Shown here one piece after another: positions 13,565 through 58,700 of a stretch of 64,000 nucleotides of DNA; positions within the stretch are counted from its first letter, which is position 1, and every line of letters starts with the position of its first letter. Under the pieces are notes generated by a model that did not search any database, was not told the DNA's origin, and worked only from the letters and a program-made list of their open reading frames with translations. The translations under genes were made by a program, and so were the position numbers. Origin of the DNA: Yuukianura sp. NJ FZ-2021 (lineage: Eukaryota); the NCBI GenBank assembly GCA_046563655.1, contig JAJCTO010000011.1:124001-188000 (forward strand), read 5' to 3'.

Positions 13565-16500
13565 ATGGGAAAGTGGAAGTGTAACTGCAGATGCGGTTGT
13601 TCTCGCTGGAATGCTTCCAATACTCGAGCCTACTACGTTGACGGGAGGTGTCGTAGTATTTGCGGAAAATGTTTTGCTGCTGTGAGGAATGCGTCGGGAC
13701 TTATTAAAAACCCGAGAATTCAACAAAAAGGTATGAAAATATATGATATGACACTTCAACTAATCGAATGATGTAAGCTAACCAGTTTTAACAGCTTTTT
13801 TGGTCACTTTCTAAACGGGTCACGCCCAATTTTATTCAATTTTTTTTCTTTTTCAGAGTTGAACGGTGACGACTCGGGAAATGTACCTAGGCTTCCATTG
13901 GCTCCTTCTCATGGAATGAACTTGAACGGTGACGACTCGGCTTCTGTACCACGGCTCCCATTGGCTCCTTCTCATGGCTTGAAAACGAACGTTGACGACC
14001 TGGCTTCTGTACCACGGCTCCCATTGGCTCCTTCTCATGGACTGAACTTGAACGGTGACGACTCGGCTTCTGTACCACGGCTTCCATCGGCTTCCTCTTC
14101 TGGCTTGAAAACGAACGTTGACGACCTGGCTTCTGTACCACGGCTCCCATTGGCTCCTTCTCATGGACTGAACTTGAACGGTGACGACTCGGCTTCTGTA
14201 CCACGGCTTCCATCGGCTTCCTCTTCTGGCTTGAACACGAACGGTGACGACTTGGCTTCTGTTCCCCGGCTTCCATCGGCTTCTTCTCATGGACTGAACT
14301 TGAACGGTGACGACTCGGCATCTGTACCACGGCTCCCATTGGCTTCTTTTACCATTGACGACCTGACCTTTTTGGCTCAATTACGTACTCTCGGGCTTAC
14401 ATTCCGTTCAATGCTTGGTGATGGGTAATGAACAAATCTAAATAAAAATCTAACCATACTGTATGCATCTTCTCGTTTCTAGAAATTGCTTGTTCAGAAG
14501 TTTGTCAGATCAATTCGACGGTAGCGACATCCACCATTCGAAACATCGCGAAGCCGTGGTCAACTTTATGCTCCAAAATCGTCGTGACTTCGAAGATTTC
14601 CTTGAAGAAGAATACGATTTTGATGAATACCGTAATTGCTTCAGCTTTATTATACAGTTTTGTGCTTTATTAGTTTGTGGTAACGTTTAATGCTCTGTAT
14701 CCTAGTGCAAGAACTCTCGAAACTCGGTACTTATGCTGGAAACGACGCAATTGCCGCATTCTGTAGATTGAACAATGTCATGGTTGTCGTTCACCAACTC
14801 GATAGAACTCCGCTGAAGCTCAGTACTAACGCAGAAAATTCAACTCCAAACCGCGAATTGCATATCTCCTACCACAATGGTGAGTATATAATTCAAATCC
14901 AACAAACATATTACCAGGAGACAACCAACCATAAATTACATTAACGTTTTCTCCCCAGGAAATCACTACAACAGCGTTCGCCAAATTGGTGACGTCTCCT
15001 TTCTGCCACAGAGTTTCAGAATGTTCACGTTTCAGCAACACGAATCGGCCTTAGAGCACGAGCCATCAATAGAAGTAGATTCTTCCGAAGACTGCTTAAT
15101 TGATGCTGAAGACGTTGAGAATTCATCTCAGCATTCTATTTCCGCCGCTGTGTCTATATGTGACTTCTCAATGCAACTTTCAGTTCGACACGAAGCGAAG
15201 ATCCGGCTTCCTGATTTATCCACGTGCCGTTCGACTCAAAAACGTTGCTTCTTGTGTGGTGATCGAAACGGGAGAGGCCGAGTACCTAAGATGGCAATTG
15301 ATGACGCCTGGAGAAGAAAGAAAATTGTCATTCCAGTCAATAATCGCTGCTGCAAGTCCCACCTCCGGTACTCCAGGCTAACTGAAGATGCGCTAGAGCT
15401 TTTACGTCCAATCAAACCATTTCTGGATACTACACCTGAAGCCGCATCTCGCTGGATCTACGGCTTGACAAGTTATTTGCCATCCACAAACCTTCGCGTG
15501 GATTTCGCAATCGACTCGGACTTATCAGATGATGACTACTACCTCCTGCTTGGCGTGTCTCGAGAAGACTTTCAAGAATTGATGTCTTTCAGTCATGGCT
15601 TGCGGTCCAGCCGAAATCGTACGAGACGAAATGCCGTAGCAATGCTGTTGATGAAGCTTCGTCTGAACCTGAGCCTCAACTTTCTGGGATTCCTCTTCGG
15701 GATAAAAAGCAAATCCGTCGTCAGCGACATCATCAAGGCAGCGTCTACAACACTGGAGGAAAACTTCGTTCCACGATATCTGGGATACCAACACAAGTCC
15801 AGAGAAGAAATTCTTTCGCAGCACACGGTGAAATCATTTCAAAGACTACTCCAACATGACGAAGATGTATTGGTGGTGGTCATGGATGGAACGTACTTTT
15901 ACGTCCAACGACCTGCGGACCACAAAGATCAGAGGATGCTGTACTCCTTGCAGAAGCTTCGTCACTTGGTGAAGTTTATGACGGTTGTGACCAGTACTGG
16001 CTACATAATTGAATGCGAGGGGCCATTTGGAGCGGACAACGGGAACAATGACTCCACAATTCTCAAGGCCATGATGAAGAGCGAGGATTCGTCAATTCTG
16101 CAGTTGTTCGAGATCGGGGACGTGGCCGTACTGGATCGTGGCTTCCGCGATGTTGTGGATGAACTGGAGGACCATCAGGTCTGGAGTTACTTGCCAGCAT
16201 TCCTACCTCGGGACAGAAAGAAGTTTTCGACTGAAGAGGGAAATAAGTCAAGACAGGTGACAATGCTGCGTTGGGTCGTGGAAGCCGTCCATGGGAAAAT
16301 CAAGAACAAGAGCCATCTTCTGGATTCAGTGATTTCAAACTCCCTTCTTCCAAAAATCCGAACGTTTGTCAGAATCCAGTGCGCTTTGATCAACGCTTTT
16401 TCGCCGCCAGTTTTTGAGAGTTCGGAGGACCACAATGGACTGGTGGACGCGGCACTGAAGTTACTGCACGGTCAGAACGCCCTGGAAGCGGAAGTGACAT

Positions 16501-16991
16501 CGAAACGACTTGCAACTAAAAGAATCATTTGGAAATTGGCTTCTCCTTCTGACGTGCCTGAGTTTCCCGTGTTGACCCCGAACCAACTTAAGTTGTTGAC
16601 ACTTGGAACATACCAGCTCCAGCAGGCAAGTCGCTACACGCGGGAACATGTTCGAGAAGATGGATCCTACAAGTTTTTCATCCACGTGGAAGAAGCTACT
16701 CTTCTATGCGCGAAAATTGAATCCAGGCACTGCAAACGCCAGGCACACAATGTCTTCCTGAGGTACATCCCACATGGAGACACACCGGAGTCAATTACAG
16801 GATGGTTTTGTACTTGCAAGGCTGGGTCGAGAACGTTGGGATGCTGTAGCCACATTGCTTCAGTAATTTGGTTTCTGTCATTTGCACGCCATCATCCGGA
16901 AGCTGTACCGAAGAGGAGGTCACTTAGCTCCTTTATACTTGATGCTGCCCAAGAATTGGAGCAGTCGGAACAAGATGAAGATTCCGAATAG
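13565..16991 (+). CDS. OTU deubiquitinase-DDE transposase-SWIM fusion protein, 1029 aa; predicted exons 13565-13730, 13857-14424, 14483-14631, 14706-14879, 14959-16991
   Basis: All four introns are GT-AG with matching phases, and the joined length is 3090 nt. Splicing rebuilds GDGNCLFRSLSDQ, GTYAGNDAIAAF and ELHISYHNGNHYNSVR (OTUD3-like). This continues in frame into the DDE_Tnp_4-type core (VMDGTY, VLDRGF, RWVVEAVHG; DD48E) and the C-terminal SWIM-like FCTCKAG..GCCSH. Confidence 0.88.
13857..14345 (+). repeat. Coding 63-bp tandem repeat, 8 copies (21-aa LNLNGDDSASVPRLPLAPSHG-type)
   Basis: ttgaacggtgacgactcg occurs at 13859, 13922 and 14048. There are eight VPRLP cores with partly alternating A/B variants. 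Confidence 0.92.
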
Positions 16992-22531: not shown

Positions 22532-23186
22532 GACTCGCCGACAGAAGTGGACAGACAAAAGTGGATTCTTACAAAAGTGGATATTTTACAAATCCTACTT
22601 TACAAATCCGTACCCTACAAAAGTGGATACTTACAGAAGTGGATCCTTACAGAAGTGGATCCCTACAAAAGAGTACCCTTACAAAAGAGGATTCCTACAA
22701 AAGTGGACCCTTACAAAAGAGGAAATCGACAAAAGTGGATATGTTTCCTGGTAGTCAACCTACTACACTAACATTGTTTACGTAACCTAACCTAACCTAA
22801 CCTAAGGAAAACCAACATAAAAAAAAACATAACCTTGACCTGAACCAAAAGTCATTAAACTCGAATACTTAACCATGTACTTAACCAATGTACTTAACCA
22901 AACCTACCATAAAGAAAGTAGAAAGAGAATTAAAATTATTAAAAGTGCCTAAAATAATAATGTTTTTTCCGAAGCACAAAATTACTAACCAAAAGTATAA
23001 TAATTCAATATCCACTTTTGTCGCAATCCTCTTTTGTAAGGGTCCACTTTTGTAGGGATCCACTTCTGTAAGGATCCACTTTTGTAAGTATCCTCTTTTG
23101 TAGGGTACGGATTTGTAAAGTAGGATTTGTAAAATATCCACTTTTGTAAGAGTCCACTTTTGTCTATCCACTTCTGTCGGCGGACC
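22532..23186. mobile_element. Foldback-type MITE whose TIRs are made of tandem subrepeats, 8-bp TSD
   Basis: TSD atctactt at 22524-31 and 23187-94. Arms of acaaaagtggat-type repeats are inverted across the element. The centre contains (taacc)n. Confidence 0.8.
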
Positions 23187-23584: not shown

Positions 23585-24464
23585 GGTTGGAGAGTAGATC
23601 CGCAGTCTGTTTTTCTTAGTCGTTTTTTCGACATGGACATGCTCCATGATAACCGAAAAAATGACCTATACAAAAGTTGTTCCTCTTGAAAAGATAAGCA
23701 ACTTTTACGGGAACCATTTTTCTCTGTGACCTTTCCTTGAGGTCACAGGTCAAGGTCAAAAGGGTGTTCCCTGACAACCCACAAAATGGTCCCTACAAAA
23801 GTTGTTCCTCTCCTCAAAAGCTACAACTTTCATTAAGACCATTTTTGTCTGTGACCCTTTCTTCGGGTCAAAGGTCAAGGTCAACTAAGAATCTCCTGAC
23901 AATCGAAAAAATGACTTGTACAAAAGTTGTTCAGTTCAATGAGTAGATCATTTTTTGTCCTATGACCTATGACCCTGTGACGGCTCCCTGAGGCTATAAG
24001 TTAGGTTTTTTTAAACCTCGAATCCAGAAGACGTACCTTCACCTTGAGATGACACCTCAGGGAGTCGTCACAGGGTCATAGGTCATAGGACAAAAAATGA
24101 TCTACTCATTGAACTGAACAACTTTTGTACAAGTCATTTTTTCGATTGTCAGGAGATTCTTAGTTGACCTTGACCTTTGACCCGAAGAAAGGGTCACAGA
24201 CAAAAATGGTCTTAATGAAAGTTGTAGCTTTTGAGGAGAGGAACAACTTTTGTAGGGACTATTTTGTGGGTTGTCAGGGAACACCCCTTTTGACCTTGAC
24301 CTGTGACCTCAAGGAAAGGTCACAGAGAAAAATGGTTCCCGTAAAAGTTGCTTATCTTTTCAAGAGGAACAACTTTTGTATAGGTCATTTTTTCGGTTAT
24401 CATGGAGCATGTCCATGTCGAAAAAACGACTAAGAAAAACAGACTGCGGATCTACTCTCCAACC
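23585..24464. mobile_element. Foldback element, 880 bp, ~405-bp near-perfect TIRs, 8-bp TSD
   Basis: Ends are ggttggagagtagatccgcag...ctgcggatctactctccaacc. TSD gattacgg at 23577-84 and 24465-72. The spacer is only ~60 bp (~23992-24054). Confidence 0.9.
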
Positions 24465-29019: not shown

Positions 29020-31579
29020 ATGGAAACCAATGATGGTTCTGGTGGTCATGGATTCCAAGTACCAAGTTCCGTAAGTTTAAAGGTTCTGCTGATCTTTATT
29101 TGAACGAATATTGGATTTACTACATAATCGTGCACTTATGTATAAACAAAAGGATACAACACAGTGGACCGAGGAGGTGGAAGAGGATGCCGTATGGGGC
29201 GTGTATTTGAAAAAGATTCGCTACCAGAGGCCTTCTGTCTTAGTCCAAGTGGTTACCAACTATCCGTCCTCGTCATCTTCCGGGCCAAGCCACAGTCAGT
29301 CGTTAGGACGCTCAAGCGGAATTACCTCCTGCACCACCTCTTCGTCCGACGTCGTCATTGATGAAGTGGACTCGGACCAAGGAGAAATTGCTCATTTGAT
29401 GTGGGAAACTGTTCGTGTGCGAGTGCTCAGAGCCGGAACCCTTCGACGAATAGTTGAAGCCATGTCGAACGACGACAGCGATGTCCAGGTGAGGGAAAGT
29501 AACTGAAGTTGTGTATACAGTCACAGGAAGTTATTCTACTGAGAAAAAAATAAACTGTTTTTGAGTAGGCGACGCATCTGAGCGTGTTCTTAGCTACGTA
29601 TCGTGCCTTTGCAACTCCGACTGAAGTACTACAAGAAATCATCTACCTCTACAAGCACTCAAGTCAAGACTCACTACGAAAGTAAGTCAAATTAATTAAG
29701 GTAGTTGAGCCTAATTAGCCGATGTTTGTTCTTTGTTATAAAGAAGCATTGACCTTACTCGGAATATTTCAAAATAATAGGGTGATGCTGGACTGTCTCA
29801 ATGCATGGCTCGACTCTTATTCTGAAGATTTCGAATCCGGAGGGGATGGTTACCACTGTTTACGTAAAGTCATCCTGCCATTTGCACAAGATCAAGGACT
29901 CACTTCTCTGGCACTAAAAATTCAATATAAACTGAGATCACGGCGCAAGATGAGGAAGTCTAGCAGCCTGCACTCTCTACGCACTTTCTCGCCGCAGAAC
30001 ATTCGAACGTACTCACTCTTGGCCATACCGGAATCACATTTTGCACAACAGCTCACCATACTATGATAAGGTGACACATTTTGAAGCAAAACGTTCCATA
30101 TAGACAAATTGTCTTAACACAAGTCCATGTTTTTTAGGAACTATTTCTTAATTTGCGTGTTTGGGAATGTTTGGGAGGCTTGTGGAAGCGAAGGTGCGGA
30201 TGTGCTTCTGTAGCGGCAACAGTTGAGCAGTTCAATGCACTTTCAGGACGTGTTGTGGCCACGATTCTGGTTGATCCGACGTTACCTCTGCAACAAAGGG
30301 CGAAAATACTCGAGAAATGGATTCGAATTGCTCAGGTGGGATTTCGGGAAAACACTGCTTTTTTTCTTGTAGTTGTTGGGCAGGAATGAGGTTAAATTGC
30401 ATTGTTACAGGAATTACGGCAGCTCAAGAATTTTTCGTCGTTGAAAGCCATCATTGCAGGGTTGGAGTCAAACCCAATCTTTCGCCTCTCCAAGCTCTGG
30501 CATCTCGTCTCCAAGGACCGCCTGACCATTTACTCACAATTATCCCAAATCTTCTCCGAAGACAACAACCGAATGGCACAACGGAGTCTTCTGGAAGCCG
30601 AGGGAACAGCCAAATTCCCTACGCCCACCAAGAGTCCAAAGGACAGAAGATTCCTATCAAGGGTTCTACGCTCAAGTCATGGCACGAGAGGCACGACGGC
30701 AGAATTCGACTCTCCGAATGGGACGATTCCTTATCTTGGTACATTCCTCACTGATTTGACATTCATTGACGCTGCATACCCAGACTACGTACACGGAACA
30801 CTCATCAACTTTGACAAACGAAAAAAGGAATTTGAAGTCTTAGCTCAGCTGAAGCTCCTACAAGGATCTGCCAAAGGATATCGCCTAGAAGAGGATCCGT
30901 ACTTCACGTCGTGGTACAACTCTTTAACAGTGTTGGATGACAAGGCTGCTTACGACTTGTCGGTCGCAATTCAAACTGAACGGGTTCCGCCTAAAGGACA
31001 TCGCAAGAGCGACTCTTTTGCTTCAAACTCATCGTCGGAAAATACGGAGAGCGTTTTGGGAATTCCCCCCACTCGAAAGGTAATTTGTAATTTGAAAGCC
31101 AATTATTATTATTTGTGATTGTATTTATGTTCTATTAGGGTTCAATCCAGAGTTCAAACGAAAGTTCCACGGGTTACTCAGAGGCCCCACCAGTCGTACC
31201 CGGACTCACTTCCCCCACGCCGGAAACATCAGTCGTTGTGAAAGTTTCATCACCAGCCAAATCAGATGTAATGTACAAATCTATGATTGTCAGTAATTCG
31301 GACCACACGCCGCAAGTGATAGCCCAAGCGCTGGAAAAGTTGGGTTTCGAAGGAGAGGAACCTCGTCGCTTCTCACTCGTCCAAGTTCTCGCTAATAAAG
31401 AACTTAAGTTCCCCGCAAACGCAAACGTTTTCTACGCCCTGGACAACTCGGGAGTTCCTGGAAGCGTTCGATTGGAGTTGAGGCCAACAACGAACCACAC
31501 GTCTGGACGCAACCTTCGCGTGAGCCCCAAACCACACCCGTTGTCCCTCTCATCCGTGAGTCTCAACAACAATCAATAA
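29020..31579 (+). CDS. Ral guanine nucleotide dissociation stimulator-like (RalGDS/RGL) protein: RasGEF_N, RasGEF and RA domains
   Basis: [108 protein letters not shown], and C-terminal MYKSMIVSNSDHTPQVI..ANVFYAL. The start codon is tentative. Confidence 0.9.
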
Positions 31580-32857: not shown

Positions 32858-33508
32858 TTTATTGAACCTTACGCTTATTGAAATATTGAACCTTATCCTG
32901 GTTTCAGAAAGGCACCACGAAAGTTTGGTTGTCCGGTCTTACTAAATAAAAACTTTAAATATTTTATAAATAATCGGACTACGATTATCGGAGTCGACCT
33001 CAATTGAAAGAACACAGGAAAACGCTTAGAAACACTTATCTTCCCTGAAATCAATAAATAATACGTAGGTATAAGTACGGTAGTGAAAGCGAAAGGTAGG
33101 GAAGTTAGTAACCTAAGTTATTCGCAAAACCGCAAATTCATACACAACATACTTGGTTGAACGACAGAATTATCCCACTCCATTGTAACCTCAACAATGT
33201 TAATAAGTTTTAGCATCATTCTGTTGTACCAGTGCTCACACTACAATATCAACCTGGTACCACCAAGTACTAGATTAAACGTCTACGCCTCTACGGGTAT
33301 TACGGCTGGAGTGACAACATAATTGACCATATTGGTACAACGTTGTTTGATGTAACTAGTATTACTACGATCTTCTATGCACCTCTTCCTTACATCAACG
33401 AGAATCAACCTAACAACACTACATGAGACCAACTAATCATCTGAAAGGCCAACAACGCAGAAATTCGGTGGTGGTGGTGGTGGAATTGAGGTAAGTGGTG
33501 GTGGAGGT

Positions 33509-34113
33509 TGTAACGCCGGAAATAGGCGTTCGCCGTTTCAGGAAGGGCCCACGGGGGAGACCGATGTTTGCCCCGTGGGGTCAAGGGCCCTAAAGACCCC
33601 TTCCGGGCGGCCGAGGTTCCATGCCAGTCAGTCCATTGTTGCGAGGAGGTGAAAATGAAGTCCCTATGTTCTTATTAAGTGTCGTACTTCCTTTATTCGA
33701 GTTTCGCTTACTTCTTCGACTTCTGTACTGACTTAACTTTAGGCAGTGACTGCCGGGTATTTATACCAGGTGCTTAATTATCCGTTAATTGAAGGTGGTT
33801 AGATAGTACCTTTTGTGGTAAACAAGTGGTAAAGTAACAACCGCAGGAGCACTAACCGCATTACCGGCGTAGGCTGTGGTAACACTAATTGGGTGATAAA
33901 GAGGGCCTGCGGTGAGGCTGATTCTTAATCGAATTATCTACCTGGCCTTGTGGTTTTGTCTTAATTAACCTGGCCTTGCTATTACACTTCCTGCTTAGTA
34001 ACTAAATACAAGTGCTGGGGTCCCTTAGCGACTAAGTGACTAAGTGTACGTGGAACCTTGGCTGAGTGAAAGTAAAACGTGGAAATAAATCTTGAATTAA
34101 AGCAGGTGTAACA
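33509..34113 (-). repeat. 3' LTR
   Basis: Minus-strand TATAAATA (33758-65), Inr-like TCAGT (33727-31) and AATAAA (33692-97). Confidence 0.92.
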
Positions 34114-34176
34114 CTCTCCAACGCCTATTCTTTTTGTCGTCCCGACAAAACAATGCGTAGGGGCGGAGCATGTGTG

Positions 34177-35407
34177 CTACAGATTCTGTGGTTCAAATTG
34201 TCGGAGGCGGGCTTCTAACTCTTGCACCTTGGCCACAAGCATCGGGAGGAGTATGTCCGGCGGAGGTAGACTTCCTAGTACAGGGAGTTCAGACTGGGGC
34301 GGTGCCAGCGGAATAGAGTACGGTGTCCACCGTGGTGTATGCTTGCCCGGTCCCACGGCGAGCCGACTTGCTGGGCGCATGTTTGCTGGGAAGTCCGCCC
34401 CGAACCAAGTGAGTAATTCTGGTACGAGCTGGCGGGCACGGGCTTCGTCCATGCCTTCGGGTTTTGGTAGCGTGGTGATGCGCTGGCGCAGTCCTTTGAT
34501 GAACTCACGGTCTGTGCCCTCTTTCCACGTCTCGTAGTCTTGCTGGAAGAGGTTTGTTGGGAGGTCGAGGACGCGTGCAACATAAATAATACTGGCTCGA
34601 ACCCGGGCGTCTCTGGCATTTGTTGGGTCGGTGTCCGAGAAGAAGTGTTTTTAACTGGTACTGTTCTGCTGTTTGCTCGTGGGTGCTGTCGAAAATCTCT
34701 TGTAGGGTGTAACGAATATTTACTACGCTGTTGTCGAGGGTGTCCTGAAGGTGCATGGTGATGTCCCGCCAGAAAAGAACGATTGTTGCTGTCGAGTCCA
34801 TCATGCGCTCTAGGTCTTGATCTAGGAATTGGCGGGGGAAGCCGGCGGGTATGGTTACTGTTGACCCGAACTCGTTTCGGATAACGTGTGGGGTTGCGTG
34901 ATCCGGTAGGTTGTCCCAGTGAAGGCGAATTGTTTCAACATCTAGTATGCTTCGGGGTACAATCCTCAAGTCGCGTTCGATCCATTGTTGCTGCTGCTGA
35001 CCGCTGTAGCAAAGCTTGATTACTCGATGCGTTCCGAACAGTTGTCGCAGAGGGTCGTGAGAATTCGGATTCCTGGGGTCCACGGCAAAAGCGTTTTTCT
35101 TGGATATGATGACAATACGGCAAATCGCGCCTACGTAGGAATGTGGCCATTCAAAACAAGTGAAGGCAACGGGAGAGATTTCCATCGCTGTCGTGAAGTG
35201 AGCCGTGATCTCGTCCTGCGTTGTTAAGGTGTGCATGTTAAACGGCGGCAGTTCCCAGGCTGCTGTCCAAAGTGTGTTGCCCATTCGTGCGTCGTCTAGG
35301 AAAGGAACTCCCGTGCGAATTGGTCGCACGAGTCGCATACCGTCCGTAAGGTTTCTAACCTGCGTTTGCGCGTAGTTCAGTTGAGTTGACTTGCGAAGCG
35401 TCTCCAT
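34177..35407 (-). CDS. RRP6/EXOSC10-like (RNase D family) protein, apparently catalytically inactive; one frameshift near 34650 joins a possible HRDC-like C-terminus
   Basis: VAFTCFEWPHSYVGAICRIVIISKKNAFAVDP..LRQLFGTHRVIKLCYSGQQQQQWIERDLRIVPRSILDV parallels RRP6 [70 protein letters not shown]. The acidic ExoI/II residues are replaced. The ORF is intronless. Confidence 0.62.
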
Positions 35408-35489
35408 GTCTACTGTAGTTCCTTCGAAGGTGAATTAGACGTTGACGTTTGTTTGGTTGTGTGGGGAGTGCTTTGGCTTGTTGACTTCC

Positions 35490-35650
35490 ACTAACTGACT
35501 CTCCAATTCTCTGCTGCTCGTTATTTAACCTGGACTCTTAATTGCTCGGCTGTGGGCGTTAATTGAAGGTGGTTGATTAGCAATTTCGGTGCCTAAAACC
35601 ACATTACCGGCGCTGGCTGTGGTGGTGCTGAATTAAATAATCTGCGGTGC
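35490..35650 (-). promoter_or_regulatory. Internal degenerate copy of the LTR promoter upstream of the RRP6-like ORF
   Basis: cgttaattgaaggtggtt (35557-74) is identical to LTR 33783-800. cattaccggcg..ggctgtggt and ctgcggtg are also shared in order. Minus-strand TTAAATA and TCAGTT precede the ATG at 35407. Confidence 0.65.
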
Positions 35651-36384
35651 TGATATCTCGTTCGGTGGTCCTTAATTGGAACATCACTCGTTGAGGTGAC
35701 GGGACAGCGTCAATTTTTCTTCCGGGTTGCCTCTGATCATGAGAGCGAAGCATGTGTACGGGGTCGTCTAGTTTGACCGTTGACCGCCAATGTTCAGAAT
35801 TTACTCCCTTCGTGTTTTCTTCTCGTAGTTTCTCCGGTTTCTGTCGTAATTTTCGTCCTTAAAGGTTGGAGGCGGTGACGCAGGTCACGTTAGGAGACTT
35901 CTGGCGACGCCTGGCCCTCCCCAACTTAAATCGCTGCTACTCCCGGAGCAGCTTCGGTGGGTGCGAATTGGAACAGAGTCGTCTGAGAGTTCATGACTTG
36001 GCCACAGGGATGACCACGCTCGTTGGAGCTTAAGGTACAGGGCTAATTACATTAGTTTTCTTCTAAGTAATTTAAGTAATTTCTTATCTTATCACAAAAA
36101 CAAAAAAAATGCTTTGGGAGAGTCGTGTGATAAACTTAAACAGGTGATCTGAACTACTTTACGTAGGTAATGATTTCTTAGCTGATTTTAAGTAACAATT
36201 TAACCAATATTTGACATTGGTGTCACACTTTTCCACTCGAGATCAGAAGTTAGATTAGTAAGACAAATACATAAAGCATAAGCAGAACGTTGCAAAGCAC
36301 CATGAGGCTCGGCTGGCCCCTTTTGCGGAAGCACTGATATCAGAGAGAATTCTCAGTTAACCCAGGCCGTATGTCTGTCTGTGA

Positions 36385-37113
36385 ATGGAAACCAACAGGC
36401 TGCCCAAGATCTGCCTCCTGGAACTTGAAAAAAGACACATCAAATCCCCATCTAAAAAGTTTAATTGGGTCACTCAGTTCTCTCAATTCACAGAATCATT
36501 GGGCCTCGGAGACGTCACACAATTACCTCAATGGACAGGACTGCAAGACCTAATACAAACTCAAAAAATGGCTATCCTCAAACTACACAAACGAGACATG
36601 GAAGCCCTTGAAATATCCACAAGAAACCATTTTTACGCAGAAGTAAGAGGGAAAATAATACTGGAAGATCTGGAGAAAACAGGCCTATCCTCACAACCAC
36701 CTCCCTCTGCCACCGCAAGTTGCAAGAAAAAAGCCCCACCATCTACAGCACTCACACCAGCACCATACCTAATGCTAGAAATCCCATTCACAACGAAGAA
36801 GATCATAGCTGCTGCCAGGACACAGAGCGAATTTTTAAAATTCCGCGGGCAACACACAATTCTAAAAAATCCGGAAAACTGCACCTTGTGCAGCTTAAAC
36901 ACCAAAGATGACATGTTCCACATGGTATGCGAATGTCCACACAGCAGCGTAACTGAAATTAAAAACAGGGTCAACCTAAATTCTCCTCGACGATGCAATC
37001 AAATTCTCGAACTACTAGAATCAATGACAACAAAAGAGGAACTCCTACATTTTGCTGAATTGGTAACCTACTCATTGCGCAGACGCTGCATTCTGGAACA
37101 GGACCAAGGCTAA
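36385..37113 (+). mobile_element. 3' fragment of a non-LTR retrotransposon ORF2 (post-RT region and CCHC finger)
   Basis: RLPKICL..NW motif and C-terminal CTLC..DDMFHMVCECP. No RT core upstream, so it is 5'-truncated. Confidence 0.7.
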
Positions 37114-37212
37114 GAAAACTGACATAAAAGGAAAGACCACATCAACAACAACAACCAGTATCGAAATCCAACATTTTTCAGTGAGGCGAAGAAAAAACGA
37201 CAGTACTCAAAC

Positions 37213-37710
37213 ATGTCGAGTTCCAGCAGTATAATTCTCCTCTTCACCGTGCTCGCTACTCTGGCTACTACTCCGGGGCTGACTATTCCAATCTCTCCAA
37301 TCGCAGCGCTCACGAAAATCCCGAAAGGGATTGAAGGCATCACCAGCTTCATCCGAGGAATCTCATCGCTTTTTGGATCTGGAACTCAATTTGCATCACA
37401 GTTTGGACACCACTACTCCGACATCTACAATAACCAGCTCATGTACCAGGCGGTCAACGCTTTTGAAAATGCACAGCAACGAGAAGAGGCCCAGAAACAA
37501 GAACAGATCATGGAGTCGGAGCTGCAACTGGAAAAAACAGGTGTATGGACAATGGGAGCATTCCTGCTAATTCTGGTGATCAACACCTCGCTGCTAACCT
37601 TGCTCCTAATTATTCGCATCCAAAAGGAGATTAAACAACGAGGAAGAGAGAAAGCTGTAAGGGAACACAATCGAGACATGGAGCTAAAAACGATTGCAGC
37701 TAAAATTTGA
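37213..37710 (+). CDS. Small predicted type-I membrane protein (165 aa), unknown function
   Basis: Signal-like IILLFTVLATLATTPG, amphipathic KGIEGITSFIRGISSLFG, a charged helical segment, TM GVWTMGAFLLILVINTSLLTLLLIIRI and a basic cytoplasmic tail. Confidence 0.6.
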   Translation: MSSSSSIILLFTVLATLATTPGLTIPISPIAALTKIPKGIEGITSFIRGISSLFGSGTQFASQFGHHYSDIYNNQLMYQAVNAFENAQQREEAQKQEQIMESELQLEKTGVWTMGAFLLILVINTSLLTLLLIIRIQKEIKQRGREKAVREHNRDMELKTIAAKI

Positions 37711-38129
37711 AGAACCACGATGACCCACCAATGACCGGCCACAGGAACCGTTATGACGCAGACTCCTAATTGAAAATTTTACTGTCCTGTCGGATCCGAT
37801 TACAACGGTATTGCGCGCCTTTGGTACCATAACTTTCGTGGGTCCACCCCACCAGTAGCAGTGTGAGTTTCATTATTACCAACCTTTACCTCCCTTTTGT
37901 TTTACCTTTTCCTAACTTGGTATTTGATGAGTAGCTGTAGGACATAGCGTCATCCTCTTTGGGATTTAGACTACAGCCCGGTCAATTAATACACCGTTAC
38001 TAGGAGTTCCAATTCTCCCGGCCCGTCCTTTCACAGGATATTTCTGTTTTCGGTCCCATCCCTCATGTCCAAGCGATTCATGTTAGGCCGATACTTGCGT
38101 TGTCTTATCGACAAATTGTCATAAACTCT

Positions 38130-38700
38130 TCGTCTCGTCAAGTCTTCACTTCGTAAAATCTTCCCCTCGTAAGCTGCTATTTGTAAAATCTTCGTTTCGG
38201 AAAATCCTCTTCCGGTAAAATCTTCATTTCGGAAAATCTTCTTTCCGTAAAATCTTCATTAGGTAAAATCTGCATTTCGGAAATTCTTCATTTCGGACAA
38301 TCTTCATCTTAAGAAAGTTTCATCACGTGGAAGCTTCATTTAATGAAAGCTTCATCCGGTAAGGGCTTCATCTTGTGGAAGCTTCATCTTGCGGAAGCTT
38401 CATCTGGTACGGGCTTCATCTTGTGGAAGCGTCATCTATTAAGGGCTTCATCTTGCGGAAGCTTCATCTTGTAAGGGCTTCATCTTGCGGAAGCTTCATC
38501 TGGTACGGGCTTCATCTCGTGGAAGCGTCATCTATTAAGGGCTTCATCTGTGGAAGCTTCATCTGTAAGGGCTTCATCTGTGGAAGCTTCATCTGTAAGG
38601 GCTTCATCTGTAGAAGCTTCGTCTTGTGGATGCTTCACCTTGGAAGAGCTTCATCTCGCACGAGCTTCATTGTGGAAGAACTTCATCATGGAAGAGCTTT
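38130..38700. repeat. Minisatellite of ~15-19-bp units (gtggaagcttcatct / gtaagggcttcatct, degrading to aaaatcttc)
   Basis: The gcttcatct core recurs many times from 38330 to 38660, with related aaatcttc units from 38150 to 38310. Confidence 0.85.
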
Positions 38701-38833
38701 ATTCCGAAAATGTAAATGTAGTTCATCTAATCGTTGCACTTCATCTAATTGTTCCAGGATGACTTCTTCTTGAGTCATTTGTTGGTCGAAACCATTCTTC
38801 ACTCAGAACTGGGCAGCGTTTGCCAGTCTCCTT

Positions 38834-39196
38834 ATGCATAAGGCGGGAAATCCAATCACGTTGGAAATGGCTGCCCTCGTTAACCTTATCAAATTGGAAG
38901 TGCGGCGCCATATGTGCGCTTTCCAAACTGAGCGCGTCTTGTTCGCGGGAAACCGACCGTGGACGTCGGTGGACGATAGGCGACGGAGGTTGTGTACTTT
39001 AATCCATAACCAGAGCCTTGAAGACTTCCTGAGAATTAATGGCGTTGTGGCAGGGACCGTCAACGTTCACCGATGGATAGAAGAGGAGCGGACCATCGCC
39101 CTTTCTGACATTGCAGACGAAGGTGAAGGAATATTGCCGACACCGACTACCAACGTTATCGAGACTATCCTAATTTCAAGCGACTCTGAAACATAG
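38834..39196 (+). CDS. Hypothetical 120-aa ORF inside the LTR element
   Basis: ATG-initiated ORF with protein-like composition and aataaa ~25 nt after the stop. No family recognised. Confidence 0.3.
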   Translation: MHKAGNPITLEMAALVNLIKLEVRRHMCAFQTERVLFAGNRPWTSVDDRRRRLCTLIHNQSLEDFLRINGVVAGTVNVHRWIEEERTIALSDIADEGEGILPTPTTNVIETILISSDSET

Positions 39197-40512
39197 TCTG
39201 ATCTAACACGCTAAACGAATTTAATAAACGTGACTCGACTTGCCTAAGTGAATTACAGGCCTTTCGTTAAATACTTTCTTTAAAAGGTAGATGTCCTTTT
39301 GCCCTTTGACATTTCAGCACACGTTTTTCTATTCAAACCAAAATCGATTTCATTTGTCTAACAAAAAAAAATTAAATATCCGTAACTTCTGCAACTGCTG
39401 ATTCACTAGCAAACATGCAAAATCAGTTTTCTCCAAATCTATGCAAAATTCTCAAAAGTGTGGATGATTTCAAAGACACAATTGAACGTGTGTTCACCCT
39501 GAGTTAGAATAGCTAAAATACAAACAAGGGTTTCGAATTTCGAGGAGTCAATAACTTACCTCCATAAAGTCCAAAGTTGAAAATAGACTAGACGCCTATC
39601 ATACTCACACTCGGGAATGTTTTGTACTGTCAGAATTAAACTAACTGAGGTCTACTGCAACCCCGAAAAATGAAAGTCCAACAACACATAGTATCTACTT
39701 CTGACAACAATGGTTTCACTAGCATCAAAATTTCCAAATCTTCGACTAACTTAAGCTAAGTTCACACTCATCCTTTCAATGAGCACCTGATCAAATTGTC
39801 AGATCACATTTGTGAATCGTGAGTCGTAAAATTTTTTTGGACCTAAGCATAGCTTACAACCGGCAAATAGTGACTGCAAATCAGTTAAGTGGAAATACGT
39901 GAACGAAACGCGTGATCGTACGTTATACGGCATGTCCGTATGCTCTTTAAGTGCCATAGAGGTTTAAGCATATAAAATCCTAGCACTTGTTCTTCCTACT
40001 GTTTGTTAACAATAATGCTGGCAAAAGTGTACAAATCGAACCGATAGCTACCACAGTAACCTCTGACCTTTGGCTAGAGCCACTGCCCTATGAGGTGACC
40101 TTTAACCGTAAGCAGAGCGTGTGTGGTAACAATAGAGGACTTTCACCTCTTCGAGGGTCACCTTCTCTATTGTACCTGTTCGATGCATTTGGGTACTTGG
40201 TCACCAGGGGGGGATAGCACTAGGTCTCCGTTACTTCCGTGGAAGGTAGCTTCGTAGGAATCAGCTCGACCTGCTCTACCTTCAGTGTGGAGGTACAGGA
40301 GTCCCTTACTACTATGTCTTACGTTAAATTCCAACCGTTATTGTCCTTACAACGTTATTGTTCTTTACATTATTAACTCCGTTACTGTTCCTAATACCAG
40401 CACTCAAATATAAGTTAATATATTTCTGAATATCGAACCTGACCGGAGACGGTCCGACGTAGTCCAAGGATTGGTGTGACCTCCTCTTCTTGGCATTGCT
40501 GACTGCCGCATA

Positions 40513-40529
40513 TCTCGGCAAATGCACCA
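40513..40529 (-). promoter_or_regulatory. Primer-binding site, tRNA-Gly-like (imperfect)
   Basis: Minus-strand TGGTGCATTTGCCGAGA lies 2 nt after the LTR and resembles the complement of the tRNA-Gly(GCC) 3' end (TGGTGCATYGGCCGGGA). Confidence 0.65.
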
Positions 40530-40531
40530 AA

Positions 40532-41136
40532 TGTAACGCCGAAAATAGGCGTTCGCCGTTTCAGGAAGGGCCCACGGGGGAAACCGATGTTTGCCCCGTG
40601 GGGTCAAGGGCCCTAGAGACCCCTTCCGGGCGGCCGAGGTTCCATGCCAGTCAGTCCGTTGTTGCGAGGAGGTGAAAATGAAGTCCCTATGTTCTTATTA
40701 AGTGTCGTACTTCCTTTATTCGAGTTTCGCTTACTTCTTCGACTTCTGTACTGACTTAACTTTAGGCAGTGACTGCCGGGTATTTATGCCAGGTGCTTAA
40801 TTATCCGTTAATTGAAGGTGGTTAGATAGTACCTTTTGTGGTAAACAAGTGGTAAAGTAACAACCGCAGGAGCACTAACCGCATTACCGGCGTAGGCTGT
40901 GGTAACACTAATTGGGTGATAAAGAGGGCCTGCGGTGAGGCTGATTCTTAATCGAATTATCTACCTGGCCTTGTGGTTTTGTCTTAATTAACCTGGCCTT
41001 GCTATTACACTTCCTGCTTAGTAACTAAATACAAGTGCTGGGGTCCCTTAGCGACTAAGTGACTAAGTGTACGTGGAACCTTGGCTGAGTGAAAGTAAAA
41101 CGTGGAAATAAATCTTGAATTAAAGCAGGTGTAACA
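40532..41136 (-). repeat. 5' LTR
   Basis: About 99% identical to 33509-34113. The TATA reads CATAAATA in this copy. Confidence 0.92.
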
Positions 41137-41305
41137 AGGTGGTGGACCGAAGCACGCCATTAGTCCTATAAAATCGAACAGCACTTTACTCCATAAATCG
41201 TAAGACCCTCCCTCAATCATAATTTTGATGTAGGTTTTTGTAATTTTTTTTTGAAATTTTTTTTTTTTTTGATTCTAATTAAGATTAGGTCAGGTTAGGT
41301 ATTAG

Positions 41306-41928: not shown

Positions 41929-42654
41929 CTATTTGTTGCAATTTTTTCTGGAGTAAGTAATGGTTTTGGTGGTATCAAAGCCTAAGCTTTTTAAAACCAA
42001 AAGCACTGCCATCTTCGTTTTCTTCTTGAGCCGCTTCCTGGGAGATTCGACGTAGTAAACAGTTTTTCCAGAGTAGCAAAGGGTTTTAAGTACAGCTGAT
42101 CCATCAGTCCAGACAATTGCACGCAAAGTAGATCCATCACCTACTAAGTCGTCGTACATTTTAGAATGTTTCTTGCTCATCTTTGCCAGAATTACGTGTC
42201 GAAAGCCACAGTTGTTGTGAACGGAAGGTTTGTTTCCAACGTAAACCGTTTCGATGCAGCGTATTGGCTCGGTTGAAGTTTGTCCCATTTGATATGTCCA
42301 TCCAACTCTAACGTTTCCATAGATCCAAGTGTAAGACAGCCTTCCACCGGGCATCACACCATTATCGGATCCGTAGCAGGTCGAGTCCAGGTCCGCATCA
42401 CTGGAAATGGGTACTCCTCGCATGTACAGGCTGTCGATAAATGCTCCAAGTTGACTTTTCATGTTATGGTACTTGGCCTTGCTCAGAGCCTTCTGGAGTG
42501 CACTGTGATTGTTTGGTAAACTTTGACCGAGACAGCGACAATTGTCGCATTGGGGCTCCTGAATGTCATCTACCGCCCATGACCTTCCTTCAACGCCTCT
42601 TGTACACAGCGTACCTAAGGCGACAAGTAGATATTTCCAACTGTGCGAAAACAT
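41929..42654 (-). CDS. Secreted Cys-containing protein (241 aa), possibly lipocalin-like
   Basis: Signal peptide MFSHSWKYLLVALGTLCTRGVEG and an uninterrupted ORF. The C-terminal IVWTD..LCY..LKSLGFD..C pattern recalls lipocalins. Confidence 0.65.
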   Translation of the reverse strand: MFSHSWKYLLVALGTLCTRGVEGRSWAVDDIQEPQCDNCRCLGQSLPNNHSALQKALSKAKYHNMKSQLGAFIDSLYMRGVPISSDADLDSTCYGSDNGVMPGGRLSYTWIYGNVRVGWTYQMGQTSTEPIRCIETVYVGNKPSVHNNCGFRHVILAKMSKKHSKMYDDLVGDGSTLRAIVWTDGSAVLKTLCYSGKTVYYVESPRKRLKKKTKMAVLLVLKSLGFDTTKTITYSRKNCNK

Positions 42655-43179
42655 TACCTCAAATTGAGACTGTTTCAGATTTGACCTGAATGAGAAATTG
42701 GGATGAAATGCGCCAAAAATAAACCTGCTGAACTGAGAAGAGGTGATGAAGTCAAGACAAAAGAAAGAGTGTTGTTGGATGTCCACTTTTTTGATATTTT
42801 ATCCACGCCTGGATGTTAAGTGGAATTAAGCCACTTGGCGTTTAACCATTCAGCCACACTGCGCTTAACAGATTATTCCAATAAAAGTCTGTACTGGTGG
42901 CAAAAAAATGCATTTTAATTCCGCGTTTTCTTACAGATCGTAATGTAATTTGGATGCTAATAAGCCAATATTGTAATTTATTAATTTCAAGTTTTATTTC
43001 AAGCTTAATTCATACTAATTACTGAATCTGCATAAGTACTATCAGTTGTAGCAACGTACTGAGCTACTCATTAAGTAAAAGCCAAAGATGGCTTAATTAA
43101 TTAATTCAACGATATAATTTGAAGGTTAGTAATAAAAACTCCAGCCTTGAAATCCAATTTGAATATTTTCAAGTCCTCC

Positions 43180-43392: not shown

Positions 43393-45035
43393 CAGAGGCT
43401 TTTTTAAGTACTGCCTATTGTCTCAAGAATGTTGAGTGTGACGCTTCTGGGTTTTATCAAACTCAACTCCTCTCCCGCGAGTTTTGCGCGAAAACAAAGC
43501 ATAACAAAACGAAAGGATTTAAATTTCAGTAGAAAAAATATTTTTGAGCATGAAGTTTATTTTTAGAGATTTTATTTTTAAAGTGTTCAAAATGTCCGCC
43601 TTCTGCAGCTACGCAGTACCACATACGGTCAGCAAACGATCTTCGCATGTTCTTCAGGATTTCCGAGTGAACTGAATTTCTGCAAAAGTGTTCAATCCTT
43701 ACTTTCAAATTTTCATTTGTTTCTTGCCTTGGTGGAAGATAGATTTCACTCCGCATAAATCCCCAAAAAAATAGTCCAGCGGTGCGAAGTCTGGAGAGCG
43801 TGCTGGCCATGGAATGTCGCCTCCTCTTCCGATAACGCGCCCAGGAAATTCTTCTGCCAGCCAATCTCTGACTTTTAGCGAAAAGTGTGGCGGTGCACCA
43901 TCGTGCTGAAAATACGCTTGATCCCATTCAATTTGCTGATTCGCTGCAGAGTATTTCGCTTCATAGTAGAGCCAGTCCTTTAGCATTTTCAGATATGCAT
44001 CGCCAGTTATGTTTCCGTCAAAAAAATAAGGTCCAAGTATTTCGTTCGAAAGAATCCCCACACCGACGTTTATTTTTGGCGACCCACGAGTTTTCTCCCC
44101 TTCGTACCAATTCGGATTTTCTTTAGACCAAAAACGAAAATTTTGTCGGTTAAACTCGTCGTTCAGGAAAAAGGTGGCTTCATCCCAAAAGATGGTAGAC
44201 ATAATCAATTTGTCGTTCTCTTCCATTCTAGGTATCATTTCTTCCGCAAAATCCAGTCTCTTGTTCTCATCTCCCTTCAAAAGTTTTTGCAAGCGGCGAA
44301 TTTTGAAGGGCTTGAGACGTTGTTGTTTAAAAATTTTGTAGATTGATGACGCTGACACGCCAGCATCAAAGGCTCGTTTCTTCAGTGACATATGAGGGTT
44401 CACGTTGACGGATGCTAACACTGAAGCAGTCATTCCCTCCGACGTTACACTTTTCGGCCGCCCAGGTTTTTTCACGTCTAACAGAGTAAACGTCGTTTCT
44501 AATTTTTCAATGATTCTCTTCACGCTTTTGGGATGTGACATTGGATGAGTCACTGACGTGTCGAGAGCGTTGTACATGTCCATGATTTCCAGGTCGGTTT
44601 TTCCAGGATTTGCGTAGCGTAGCTTGATCACAGAAAGCCGTTGTTCAGGGGAAAAATTCATTTTCTAAAATAATTTAAATCATTCTAAACCATTTATCTA
44701 AAAATTTCTACCCGAAATTCGTATTTCTTTCCTTATTGCCAAAGTTACGCTTACCAGGGGTGCTAACAAGATGCTTTCCGTCCCTCACAACTTCGAATTG
44801 GTTGACAACGCAGATGTAATTAGTAGTAATTAAGATTTAAACAATCACAAGTTAAGTTTCAACTGATAGTTTTAAAACTTTGCTTTTCTGCTTAATTTGG
44901 GATCTGTCACAGTTGGTTAGCAAAGAACCGCGCAATTTGTGGAGGGAAAAGAGAAGTTGAGTTTTCTCCCAAAAGGTGGCTAGCTTACCTTAGCGCTATA
45001 GGCATGACCTTGGGACAGTACTTAAAAAGCCTCTG
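43393..45035 (-). mobile_element. Tc1/mariner DD41D (rosa/Visitor-type) transposon; transposase 44661-43526 with one homopolymer frameshift
   Basis: TA TSDs, TIRs cagaggcttttttaagtactg / cagtacttaaaaagcctctg, and motifs FWDEATF, QHDGAPPH and WPARSPDFAPLD with 41 residues between D2 and D3. The frame break is in the A7 run at 43765-71. Confidence 0.92.
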
Positions 45036-55644: not shown

Positions 55645-55779
55645 CCAACATCCGCTATTCCATCCAAATCACTTCATAATGCATCGGTTTTTTATGGAAG
55701 ATTAATATCGTCTCAGCAACAAAATGCAAATTTTCTTTTCAAGCCTCAAAAGGTTAAATTTATTTTACATACACTGGTT

Positions 55780-58700
55780 TCAAAAAACCGTTTGAAAATT
55801 ATAAAATGTCAATGTATAACTAGCAAGTCCGTATAGCGTAAAATTGCTATCTTGGCACAATTCCGTTCCTCAGGATTCAATCAGACCTTAGTTGAAAAAT
55901 ATTTTCAACAACACTGTTTTCAAAAAACCACTTGAAGATCCTCAAACTAGACAAATGTCCCTATTTTTGTAGTCTGTCTCCATAGCGTCAAATTAAAATT
56001 GCTATCTTGGCACAATTCCGTTCCTCAGGATTCAATCAGACCTTAGTTGAAAAATATTTTCAACAACACTGGTTTCAAAAAACCACTTGAAGATCCTCAA
56101 ACTAGACAAATGTCCCTATTTTTGTAGTCTGTATCCATAGCGTCAAATTAAAATTGCTATCTTGGCACAATTCCGTTCCTCAGGATTCAATCAGACCTTA
56201 GTTGAAAAATATTTTCAACAACACTGGTTTCAAAAAACCACTTGAAGATCCTCAAACTAGACAAATGTCCCTATTTTTGTAGTCTGTCTCCATAGCGTCA
56301 AATTAAAATTGCTATCTTGGCACAATTCCGTTCCTCAGGATTCAATAAGACCTTAGTAGAAAAATATTTTCAACAACACTGGTTTAAAAAAACCACTTGA
56401 AGATCCTCAAACTAGACAAATGTCCCTATTTTTGTAGTCTGTCTCCATAGCGTCAAATTAAAATTGCTATCATGGTACAATTCCGTTCCTCAGGATTCAA
56501 TAAGACCTTAGTAGAAAAATATTTTCAACAACACTGGTTTCAAAAAACCACTTGAAGATCCTCAAACTAGACAAATGTCCCTATTTTTGTAGTCTGTATC
56601 CATAGCGTCAAGTTAAAATTGCTATCTTGGCACAATTCCGTTCCTCAGGATTCAATCAGACCTTAGTTGAAAAATATTTTCAACAACACTGGTTTCAAAA
56701 AACCACTTAAAGATCCTCAAACTAGACAAATGTCCCTATTTTTGTAGTCTGTCTCCATAGCGTCTAATTAAAATTGCTATCTTGGTACAATTCCGTTCCT
56801 CAGGATTGAATTTCAGACCTTAGTTGAAAAATATTTTCAACAACACTGGTTTCAAAAAACCACTTGAAGATCTTCAAACTAGACAAATGTCATTATTTTT
56901 GTAGTCTGTATCCATAGCGTCAAGTTAAAATTGCTATCTTGGCACAATTCCGTTCCTCAGGATTCAATCAGACCTTAGTTGAAAAATATTTTCAACAACA
57001 CTGGTTTCAAAAAACCACTTAAAGATCCTCAAACTAGACAAATGTCCCTATTTTTGTAGTCTGTCTACATTGCGTCAAATTAAAATTGCTATCTTGGCAC
57101 AATTCCGTTCCTCAGGATTCAATCAGACCTTAGTTGAAAAATATTTTCAACAACACTGGTTTCAAAAAACCACTTGAAGATCCTCAAACTAGACAAATGT
57201 CCCTATTTTTGTAGTCTGTCTCCATAGCGTCAAATTAAAATTGCTATCTTGGCACAATTCCGTTCCTCAGGATTCAATAAGACCTTAGTAGAAAAATATT
57301 TTCAACAACACTGGTTTAAAAAAACCACTTGAAGATCCTCAAACTAGACAAATGTCCCTATTTTTGTAGTCTGTCTCCATAGCGTCAAATTAAAATTGCT
57401 ATCATGGTACAATTCCGTTCCTCAGGATTCAATAAGACCTTAGTAGAAAAATATTTTCAACAACACTGGTTTCAAAAAACCACTTGAAGATCCTCAAACT
57501 AGACAAATGTCCCTATTTTTGTAGTCTGTCTCCATAGCGTCAAATTAGAATTGCTATCTTGGCACAATTCCGTTCCTCAGGATTCAATAAGACCTTAGTA
57601 GAAAAATATTTTCAACAACACTGGTTTAAAAAAACCACTTGAAGATCCTCAAACTAGACAAATGTCCCTATTTTTGTAGTCTGTCTCCATAGCGTCAAAT
57701 TAAAATTGCTATCATGGTACAATTCCGTTCCTCAGGATTCAATAAGACCTTAGTAGAAAAATATTTTCAACAACACTGGTTTCAAAAAACCACTTGAAGA
57801 TCCTCAAACTAGACAAATGTCCCTATTTTTGTAGTCTGTATCCATAGCGTCAAGTTAAAATTGCTATCTTGGCACAATTCCGTTCCTCAGGATTCAATCA
57901 GACCTTAGTTGAAAAATATTTTCAACAACACTGGTTTCAAAAAACCACTTAAAGATCCTCAAACTAGACAAATGTCCCTATTTTTGTAGTCTGTCTCCAT
58001 AGCGTCTAATTAAAATTGCTATCTTGGTACAATTCCGTTCCTCAGGATTGAATTTCAGACCTTAGTTGAAAAATATTTTCAACAACACTGGTTTCAAAAA
58101 ACCACTTGAAGATCTTCAAACTAGACAAATGTCATTATTTTTGTAGTCTGTATCCATAGCGTCAAGTTAAAATTGCTATCTTGGCACAATTCCGTTCCTC
58201 AGGATTCAATCAGACCTTAGTTGAAAAATATTTTCAACAACACTGGTTTCAAAAAACCACTTAAAGATCCTCAAACTAGACAAATGTCCCTATTTTTGTA
58301 GTCTGTCTACATTGCGTCAAATTAAAATTGCTATCTTGGCACAATTCCGTTCCTCAGGATTCAATCAGACCTTAGTTGAAAAATATTTTCAACAACACTG
58401 GTTTCAAAAAACCACTTGAAGATCCTCAAACTAGACAAATGTCCCTATTTTTGTAGTCTGTCTCCATAGCGTCAAATTAAAATTGCTATCTTGGCACAAT
58501 TCCGTTCCTCAGGATTCAATAAGACCTTAGTAGAAAAATATTTTCAACAACACTGGTTTAAAAAAACCACTTGAAGATCCTCAAACTAGACAAATGTCCC
58601 TATTTTTGTAGTCTGTCTCCATAGCGTCAAATTAAAATTGCTATCATGGTACAATTCCGTTCCTCAGGATTCAATAAGACCTTAGTAGAAAAATATTTTC

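Follow-up and report, generated by a model that had tools for sequence, protein, structure and literature searches.

A long terminal repeat (LTR) retroelement of 7.6 kb lies on the minus strand of contig JAJCTO010000011.1 of Yuukianura sp. NJ FZ-2021 (GenBank assembly GCA_046563655.1), within the 64,000-nucleotide stretch from position 124,001 to 188,000 that was analysed here (the window; all coordinates below are window coordinates). Next to its 3′ LTR the element carries an open reading frame (ORF), 34177-35407, in two frames, the first half of which appears to be distantly related to exonucleases of the RNase D/Rrp6/EXD1 type and to lack their catalytic acidic residues. The original prediction, made from the sequence alone, had described this ORF as an apparently dead nuclease resembling the nuclear exosome nuclease RRP6/EXOSC10, with a continuation reminiscent of an HRDC domain, which might act against host RNA surveillance. 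The element, the encoded protein and the likely origin of the ORF were investigated.

The LTR element and the frames of its ORF

The features of the element were assigned as follows.

33505-33508, no strand: left copy of the target-site duplication AGGT, from the flank letters; right copy at 41137-41140
33509-34113, minus strand: 3′ LTR, 605 bp, TGT..ACA, from a blastn self-match and from multicopy depth in four sequencing runs
34114-34150, minus strand: purine-rich tract (like a polypurine tract) in a stretch shared by the family and adjoining the 3′ LTR, from sequence and contig exits
34151-35463, minus strand: low-copy 'private' segment holding the whole ORF, from loose contig ends at 34150 and 35464/35460 and from depth
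34177-34650, minus strand: second half of the ORF, 157 aa plus stop, frame +1, predicted to form four helices and, beyond a Pro-rich linker, a terminal helix
34648-34652, minus strand: run of five A with a frame change of +1, from the frames and from contigs of four runs that end matching here
34652-35407, minus strand: first half of the ORF, 252 aa from the ATG, from frame translation and a shuffle test
34934-35239, minus strand: residues 57-158 of the first half, matched to residues 2-104 of RNase D, which include its N-terminal helix, the ExoI strand and the ExoII helix, from hmmsearch, BLASTP, NCBIfam, Rrp6 and hhalign comparisons
35464-36368, minus strand: 'leader' of the multicopy family, from contig depth, loose ends at 35464 and a joint from 36368 to 37780
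36384-37780, plus strand: nested fragment of another repeat with a tail like that of a long interspersed nuclear element (LINE), from the joint that skips from 36368 to 37780 and a weak zf-RVT match (E 0.019)
38122-38703, no strand: 16-bp tandem array (32- and 48-bp periods also scored) in the element's non-coding interior, 37781-40512
40513-40529, minus strand: TGG-led 17-mer like a primer-binding site (PBS), 2 nt after the 5′ LTR, from sequence
40532-41136, minus strand: 5′ LTR with a TATA-like box and AATAAA, from the blastn self-match and motif reading

An intronless ORF in the sense orientation of an LTR element had been predicted, and this was borne out. Comparison of the region with itself by blastn gave two direct repeats of 605 bp that were 99.17 % identical, had the ends TGT..ACA and were flanked by the 4-bp duplication AGGT. 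The PBS-like 17-mer, the purine tract, the TATA-like box and the AATAAA are all on the minus strand, which places the ORF in the sense orientation of the element, with its stop codon 64 nt from the 3′ LTR. The junction ...GCACCAAA|LTR at the PBS-like 17-mer recurred in loose ends of other copies; the 17-mer itself may resemble the 3′ end of tRNA-Gly(GCC).

The element is young, or recently inserted, its LTRs being 0.8 % apart. No gag, protease, reverse transcriptase, RNase H or integrase family, nor any other Pfam family over its cut-off, was found in 43 of the 48 interior frames (stop-to-stop frames of at least 45 aa from 35358 to 40560; of the other five, three lie in the tandem array and two overlap the LTR), and 15 frames of the right flank likewise gave no Pfam family over cut-off. 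RasGEF (6e-29) and DDE_Tnp_4 (1e-14) served as positive controls for Pfam within the window. The element is non-autonomous and could move only with proteins from autonomous relatives.

The LINE-like fragment at 36384-37780 is 5′-truncated and is missing from other copies of the LTR family, and contigs of 4.4-4.65 kb in two runs extended upstream of 36384. The non-coding interior of the element is unusually long. A short LTR-like motif is present within the leader at 35557-35623; the leader was considered as a second LTR and rejected, as it gave only two short collinear LTR matches of 27 and 35 nt.

The first frame of the ORF is free of stops over 309 codons on the minus strand (35434..34505), with an ATG at 35407, and the second frame, offset by +1, comprises 157 codons (34650..34177). 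They meet in the five-A run, in agreement with the +1 shift that had been predicted there. When the 1.3-kb segment was shuffled 500 times at constant composition, a length of 309 codons was never reached (mean 122, 95th percentile 168, maximum 302 codons). Read past the A-run, the zero frame would stop at 34505-34507 and give 300 aa, counted from the ATG. This tail of the first frame is rich in Arg and Pro and has an out-of-frame look, which together with the helices predicted in the second frame indicates that the coding frame really changes at the A-run in the window sequence. Around 34500-34650 the minus strand is unusually open in each of its three frames. A programmed frameshift at the A-run was also considered and was rejected, since it would require a +1 shift before an ordinary sense codon of the zero frame rather than before a stop; in addition, the contigs of four runs break at the A-run instead of differing there by one letter.

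Resemblance of the encoded protein to RNase D-type exonucleases

The two halves of the ORF were queried separately in the database searches. The top match of the first half among 18,950 NCBIfam models was TIGR01388 rnd (ribonuclease D), with E 0.0027 and 17 bits against a cut-off of 298.95. BLASTP aligned query residues 56-160 with residues 1-106 of E. coli RNase D (E 0.007), a score that was reached by six of 1000 shuffles, and a hidden Markov model built from 80 enterobacterial RNase D sequences scored 12.0 bits, which none of 1000 shuffles reached (maximum 9.2). Three PDB sequences were returned by phmmer at E≤10, and two of these were yeast Rrp6 (E 0.32), the best match being an unrelated protein, Mitoguardin 2 (E 0.087). 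In the ESM Atlas, 24 of the 30 matches carry PF01612, at a recognition value of 2846 (above the 2300 mark), and the top cluster was 'Exd1 homolog' (0.94, 184 of 256 shared features). The RNase D alignment is collinear over 103 columns and begins at RNase D residue 1-2.

The signals, all of them from sequence, single out the same family among thousands and agree in a collinear alignment that starts where the domain starts, so that the first half is likely to be homologous to the RNase D family, weak as the individual signals are. The resemblance seems to be at the family level only (RNase D/Rrp6/EXD1, DnaQ-like, PF01612-type), weak but concordant, given that the top Atlas cluster was 'Exd1 homolog', that the best profile was that of bacterial RNase D and that Pfam gave no match. 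The RRP6-type DEDDy residue pattern of the original prediction was therefore only partly upheld: a RNase D/Rrp6-like pattern was found by the tools, if weakly, whereas identity with RRP6/EXOSC10 was not, since only 56 aa precede the domain and no Pfam family of any kind was matched.

A number of results weigh against reading the first half as a captured nuclease, the interpretation that is set out below. Pfam, including PF01612, gave nothing for it at E≤10; phmmer returned no match at E≤0.001 among 1,835,955,588 protein representatives, and word-indexed sequence searches found no relatives. Comparison with 25 RNase D sequences by hhalign gave E 0.0022 yet a probability of 13 %. The comparison with the PolA exonuclease domain was non-significant (195 of 1000 shuffles), and the profile did not align the ExoIII motif Y-x3-D. 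The single-sequence AlphaFold2 (AF2) model of the first half had no usable fold, with a mean predicted local distance difference test (pLDDT) of 30.7. Foldseek on this model gave meaningless rows (TM about 0.1), and neither metagenome, viral and prokaryote contig collections nor the PHROGs and PADLOC profiles contained anything related to the first half.

The exonuclease likeness might then be due to chance, in which case the ORF would be an orphan frame in GC-rich element DNA, whether coding or not, that arose de novo or has diverged beyond recognition. No match passed any curated threshold, the blank in Pfam, the low hhalign probability and the 1.84 billion proteins without a match all fit an orphan, as does the best PDB match to an unrelated protein, and the three minus-strand frames are unusually open at 34500-34650. 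Chance would, however, have had to lead four different methods to the same family among thousands, to produce an alignment collinear from the first residues of RNase D, and to give both a profile score that no shuffle reached and an Atlas recognition above its mark. We regard such a coincidence as improbable.

If the first half is a DEDDy domain, then it is an inactive one, as judged from the alignments. Around ExoI, the zone T83-C84-F85-E86 was placed by the RNase D profile so that D28 is opposite a gap and E30 is opposite C84, with T83-C84-F85 facing T29-E30-F31 of RNase D; in the Rrp6 alignment, D-L-E is opposite F-T-C. The placement by the profile comes close to the replacement of D-x-E by T-C-F that had been predicted. 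E86 reached the position of the ExoI Glu in the non-significant PolA alignment only. The ExoII Asp (D85 of RNase D) faces Q139, within Q137-Q141, in the RNase D profile alignment, and Gln occupies this position in three alignments (Rrp6, E. coli RNase D and the RNase D profile), just as had been proposed. A W-x-x-R-D-L stretch after ExoII is common to the first half and yeast Rrp6. In a three-sequence MAFFT alignment, L-E-R-M-M-D-S-T is opposite the Y-A-A-x-D zone, without the Tyr. At most two of the five DEDDy residues were restored in any alignment obtained. The protein, if made, could bind RNA but would not be expected to cut it.

The second half gave no family (Pfam, NCBIfam), PDB or ESM Atlas signal, and sequence relatives of it were not found. 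Three weak families of unknown function were returned from PHROGs (best E 0.0072), and the best BLASTP score of the second half to RNase D was matched by 231 of 1000 shuffles. Its single-sequence AF2 model (mean pLDDT 64.6) comprises four helices (residues 9-85) that a disordered, Pro-rich linker joins to a terminal helix, the helices having pLDDT values of 63-84. Foldseek gave nothing for this model at E≤0.001 and listed a RecQ HRDC no higher than rank 20 (E 4.9); the top VIA rows contained no HRDC, and the structural matches were to generic helical bundles only. With modest confidence, the second half is modelled as a generic four-helix bundle plus a terminal helix. The HRDC domain of which this continuation had seemed reminiscent is not supported by the model, nor was it found by the family, PDB and Atlas searches.

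Copy number and origin of the segment

Public reads were available as contigs of four DNA runs (X1-X4) under two organism labels, three of the runs being from one sample. The private segment consists of the ORF with 56 nt before the ATG and 26 nt after the stop codon, and ends 37 nt before the 3′ LTR. Contig depth in the ORF bins was close to that of the single-copy left flank (X1, 26-41 versus 24.5; X2, 208-243 versus 155), while the LTR bins and 35464-36368 were several-fold deeper than this flank. Contigs of the family left the window sequence at 34150 in 10 cases (X1 two, X2 four, X3 four), with one in X4 at 34142, and three family contigs left it at 35464/35460. In the other copies, a different ATG-led frame begins 6 nt past 35464. 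The exits on both sides indicate that 34151-35463 takes the place of the family's usual interior. The joint between the ORF and the leader was bridged by 38 letters in X1 and X2 contigs covering 34649-35501.

All six listed contigs that reached 34649, from across the four runs, ended matching there and continued with 30-162 unlike letters; none of the contigs listed crossed the A-run at this position, and X4 had no cover of 34427-34587. In those genomes, therefore, the two halves either have other sequence between them or are located apart, and the single protein of about 409 aa that had been proposed was not borne out.

Contigs under the two organism labels agreed with each other, had several differences from the window within the ORF in common and all broke at the same base. 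The window copy is thus the odd one out.

Six single-letter ORF differences between the runs and the window were listed, of which four were non-synonymous and two synonymous; this gives no sign of constraint, at a sample size (n=6) that lacks statistical power. By our estimate from the LTR divergence, neutral decay after the insertion would be expected to leave roughly one frame break in 1.2 kb. A single neutrally decaying copy, not associated with LTRs elsewhere, had been named as an outcome that would speak against the original prediction, and the data suggest something close to it, yet the copy lies between LTRs.

The ORF could also be an accessory gene of the LTR lineage, similar to an ORF3 in the env position, in a copy that was internally deleted and so lost gag-pol but kept ORF3. 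Directly before the purine tract and the 3′ LTR, it occupies the position that a third ORF usually has, and DEDDy-type ORF3s are documented in LTR elements, namely Juno and Vesta of bdelloid rotifers (PMC5408684). The contigs of the abundant family tell a different story: they exit at 34150 and 35464, so that the common copies are without the ORF, and the depth of the ORF is about that of the flank. Nor was a pol remnant found upstream in the 43 of 48 interior frames compared with Pfam. We consider a regular ORF3 of the lineage unlikely.

The best explanation, to which we give about an even chance, is that a divergent pseudo-nuclease gene was transduced or captured by, and rode on, a non-autonomous LTR element and is now decaying. 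The element retains its family's LTRs, PBS, leader and purine tract, and its protein-coding interior is swapped, from about the family's usual start codon, for a low-copy, intronless segment of 1.3 kb. This segment would encode a very divergent RNase D/Rrp6/EXD1-type domain without the ExoI and ExoII acidic residues. A copy of a cellular or foreign gene may have been acquired by the classical route of transducing elements such as maize Bs1 (PMC13317346), in which reverse transcription involves read-through or template switching, and carried as a passenger, which would since have been decaying in the window copy. The reading as a transducing retroelement follows from the retention of the leader up to the usual start codon and of the purine tract.

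Further points weigh on the same side as the blank searches described above. The capture itself is read solely from the arrangement of the parts. The joint on the side of the purine tract was covered by only 30 letters, one under the bridging criterion, and contig depth, which suggests that the ORF segment is about single-copy, is a poor measure of copy number.

According to the original prediction, the ORF encodes a pseudo-nuclease derived from RRP6/EXOSC10, with an HRDC domain, that could serve as a decoy, as a dominant-negative factor or as an RNA-protecting factor against host RNA surveillance. The family-level likeness to Rrp6 and RNase D with replaced catalytic residues would suit such a protein; there are also parallels in EXD1, a dead DEDD protein that binds RNA and acts in PIWI-interacting RNA (piRNA) biogenesis (PMC4712191), and in the capture of pieces of silencing-pathway genes by transposable elements (TEs) (PMC13534243; PMC7785250). 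Several of its components nevertheless failed to appear, as an HRDC domain was not found by profile, BLASTP or structure searches and a Rrp6-specific N-terminal domain is missing. The frame is broken, with halves that are non-contiguous in contigs of four runs, and the ORF is low-copy, with its four non-synonymous and two synonymous listed differences too few to be read. We therefore hold this proposal to be very unlikely. An active role is also hard to reconcile with an element without gag or pol in 43 of its 48 interior frames, and a decoy function in general seems unlikely.

More specifically, the ORF might be an EXD1/Rrp6-like RNA-binding pseudo-nuclease that mimics a host RNA-surveillance or piRNA factor and, expressed from the LTR in the germline, shields the RNA of the element or titrates partners of the exosome or the PET complex. 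Such a mimic would be the first TE-encoded protein-level anti-silencing factor of its kind in an animal; we rate it as highly improbable. The value of one broken, low-copy instance is as a lead for a genome-wide search and not as evidence of counter-defence.

Other features of the window were the following; the LTR element is situated about 2 kb downstream of the RasGEF/RA host exons.

13772-14428, plus strand: open frame of repeated units of about 20 aa (…NGDDSASVPRLPLAPSHGL…), a coding-looking minisatellite
14892-16991, plus strand: frame of 699 codons with HTH_Tnp_4, DDE_Tnp_4 (1e-14) and a weak SWIM finger, a PIF/Harbinger-type transposase
22536-23182: pair of palindromic arms of 172 nt, 95 % identical
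23585-24464: large, near-perfect palindromes nested at about 24024, one with 236-nt arms (99 %) and the other with 180-nt arms (100 %)
30396-31579, plus strand: exons of a host gene, RasGEF (6e-29) followed by a RalGDS-type RA domain (PDB RalGDS RA, 6e-14)
41929-42798, minus strand: Cys-containing frame of 289 codons just outside the 5′ LTR, without a Pfam match at E≤1
43705-44664, minus strand: frame of 319 codons with a mariner/Tc1-type look by eye, for which Pfam gave a weak HTH_32 only (E 0.051)
55726-64000: satellite array with a 155-bp unit in at least 51 copies, mostly 96-100 % alike, running off the end of the window; a spacing of 157 bp every few units suggests a higher-order structure

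Comparison with known systems

RNase D and Rrp6 gave the best sequence and profile matches to the first half, collinear from the start of the domain through ExoII. They differ from the window ORF, which has neither the D-x-E nor the ExoII Asp and in which no HRDC was detected. Orthologues of RRP6/EXOSC10 carry an N-terminal domain of the PMC2NT type; this was not seen in the window ORF, where only 56 residues precede the aligned core and no Pfam match was obtained.

The core of EXD1, an RNA adaptor of the piRNA pathway, is a dead DEDD domain that binds single-stranded RNA (Yang et al. 2016, PMC4712191). EXD1 and the window ORF have in common a core without catalytic residues, a short N-terminal extension and a helical C-terminal part. 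The absence of catalytic residues is a shared loss and no proof of kinship. EXD1 is a host gene product with an N-terminal Lsm domain and a C-terminal three-helix dimerisation hook, whereas in the window ORF Pfam gave no match to an Lsm domain and the helical second half is in a different frame from the core; BmExd1 chains were not in the phmmer list from PDB at E≤10. If the window ORF is indeed a captured pseudo-nuclease, nuclease activity would be dispensable, echoing the host pseudo-nucleases of the piRNA pathway, EXD1 and Maelstrom.

Telomeric retrotransposons of Drosophila capture fragments of the piRNA-pathway genes nxf2, piwi and aub (PMC7785250; PMC13534243). They share with the window element the combination of a retroelement with sequence related to factors of RNA silencing or surveillance. 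These captures, however, involve non-LTR elements and recent, near-identical gene fragments that act via antisense piRNAs, and the window ORF is too diverged from any known gene for sequence complementarity. Any precedent for a decoy would hold only in spirit.

The closest precedent is found in bdelloid rotifers, where DEDDy-type ORF3s occur in the LTR retrotransposons Juno and Vesta and in Athena/Terminon elements (Rodriguez et al. 2017, PMC5408684). DnaQ-like or DEDDy ORFs in LTR retroelements are in print through this work, which is cited in an opinion paper of 2019 (PMC6338049). Like the window ORF, the rotifer ORF3 is RNase D-like and near the 3′ LTR, and it is thought to have been acquired rather than ancestral; this comparison is with the published description of the ORF3s. 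The rotifer ORF3s are placed behind gag and pol in autonomous elements, unlike the window element with neither, and are credited with 'strong homology' and a retained acidic motif (DEED), their role being unknown, whereas the window ORF is marginal in similarity, low-copy and has its ExoI and ExoII acids replaced. No report of a catalytically dead DEDDy ORF in an LTR element, or of one replacing gag-pol, was found in the literature searched, where LTR retroelements with DEDDy-type ORFs were described from bdelloid rotifers only. A captured pseudo-nuclease in the window would imply that DEDDy domains have been picked up repeatedly by retroelements.

Acutely transforming retroviruses are transducing retroelements. 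The same is true of maize Bs1, a transducing LTR retroelement with fragments of three plant genes (PMC13317346). Bs1 and the transforming retroviruses resemble the window element in that LTRs, PBS, leader and purine tract are kept, the interior is a foreign intronless gene and the element is non-autonomous. Bs1 contains several gene fragments, whereas the window element has one apparently complete domain ORF and, if the capture is real, would be a clear-cut case, in an animal, of an LTR retrotransposon transducing a gene.

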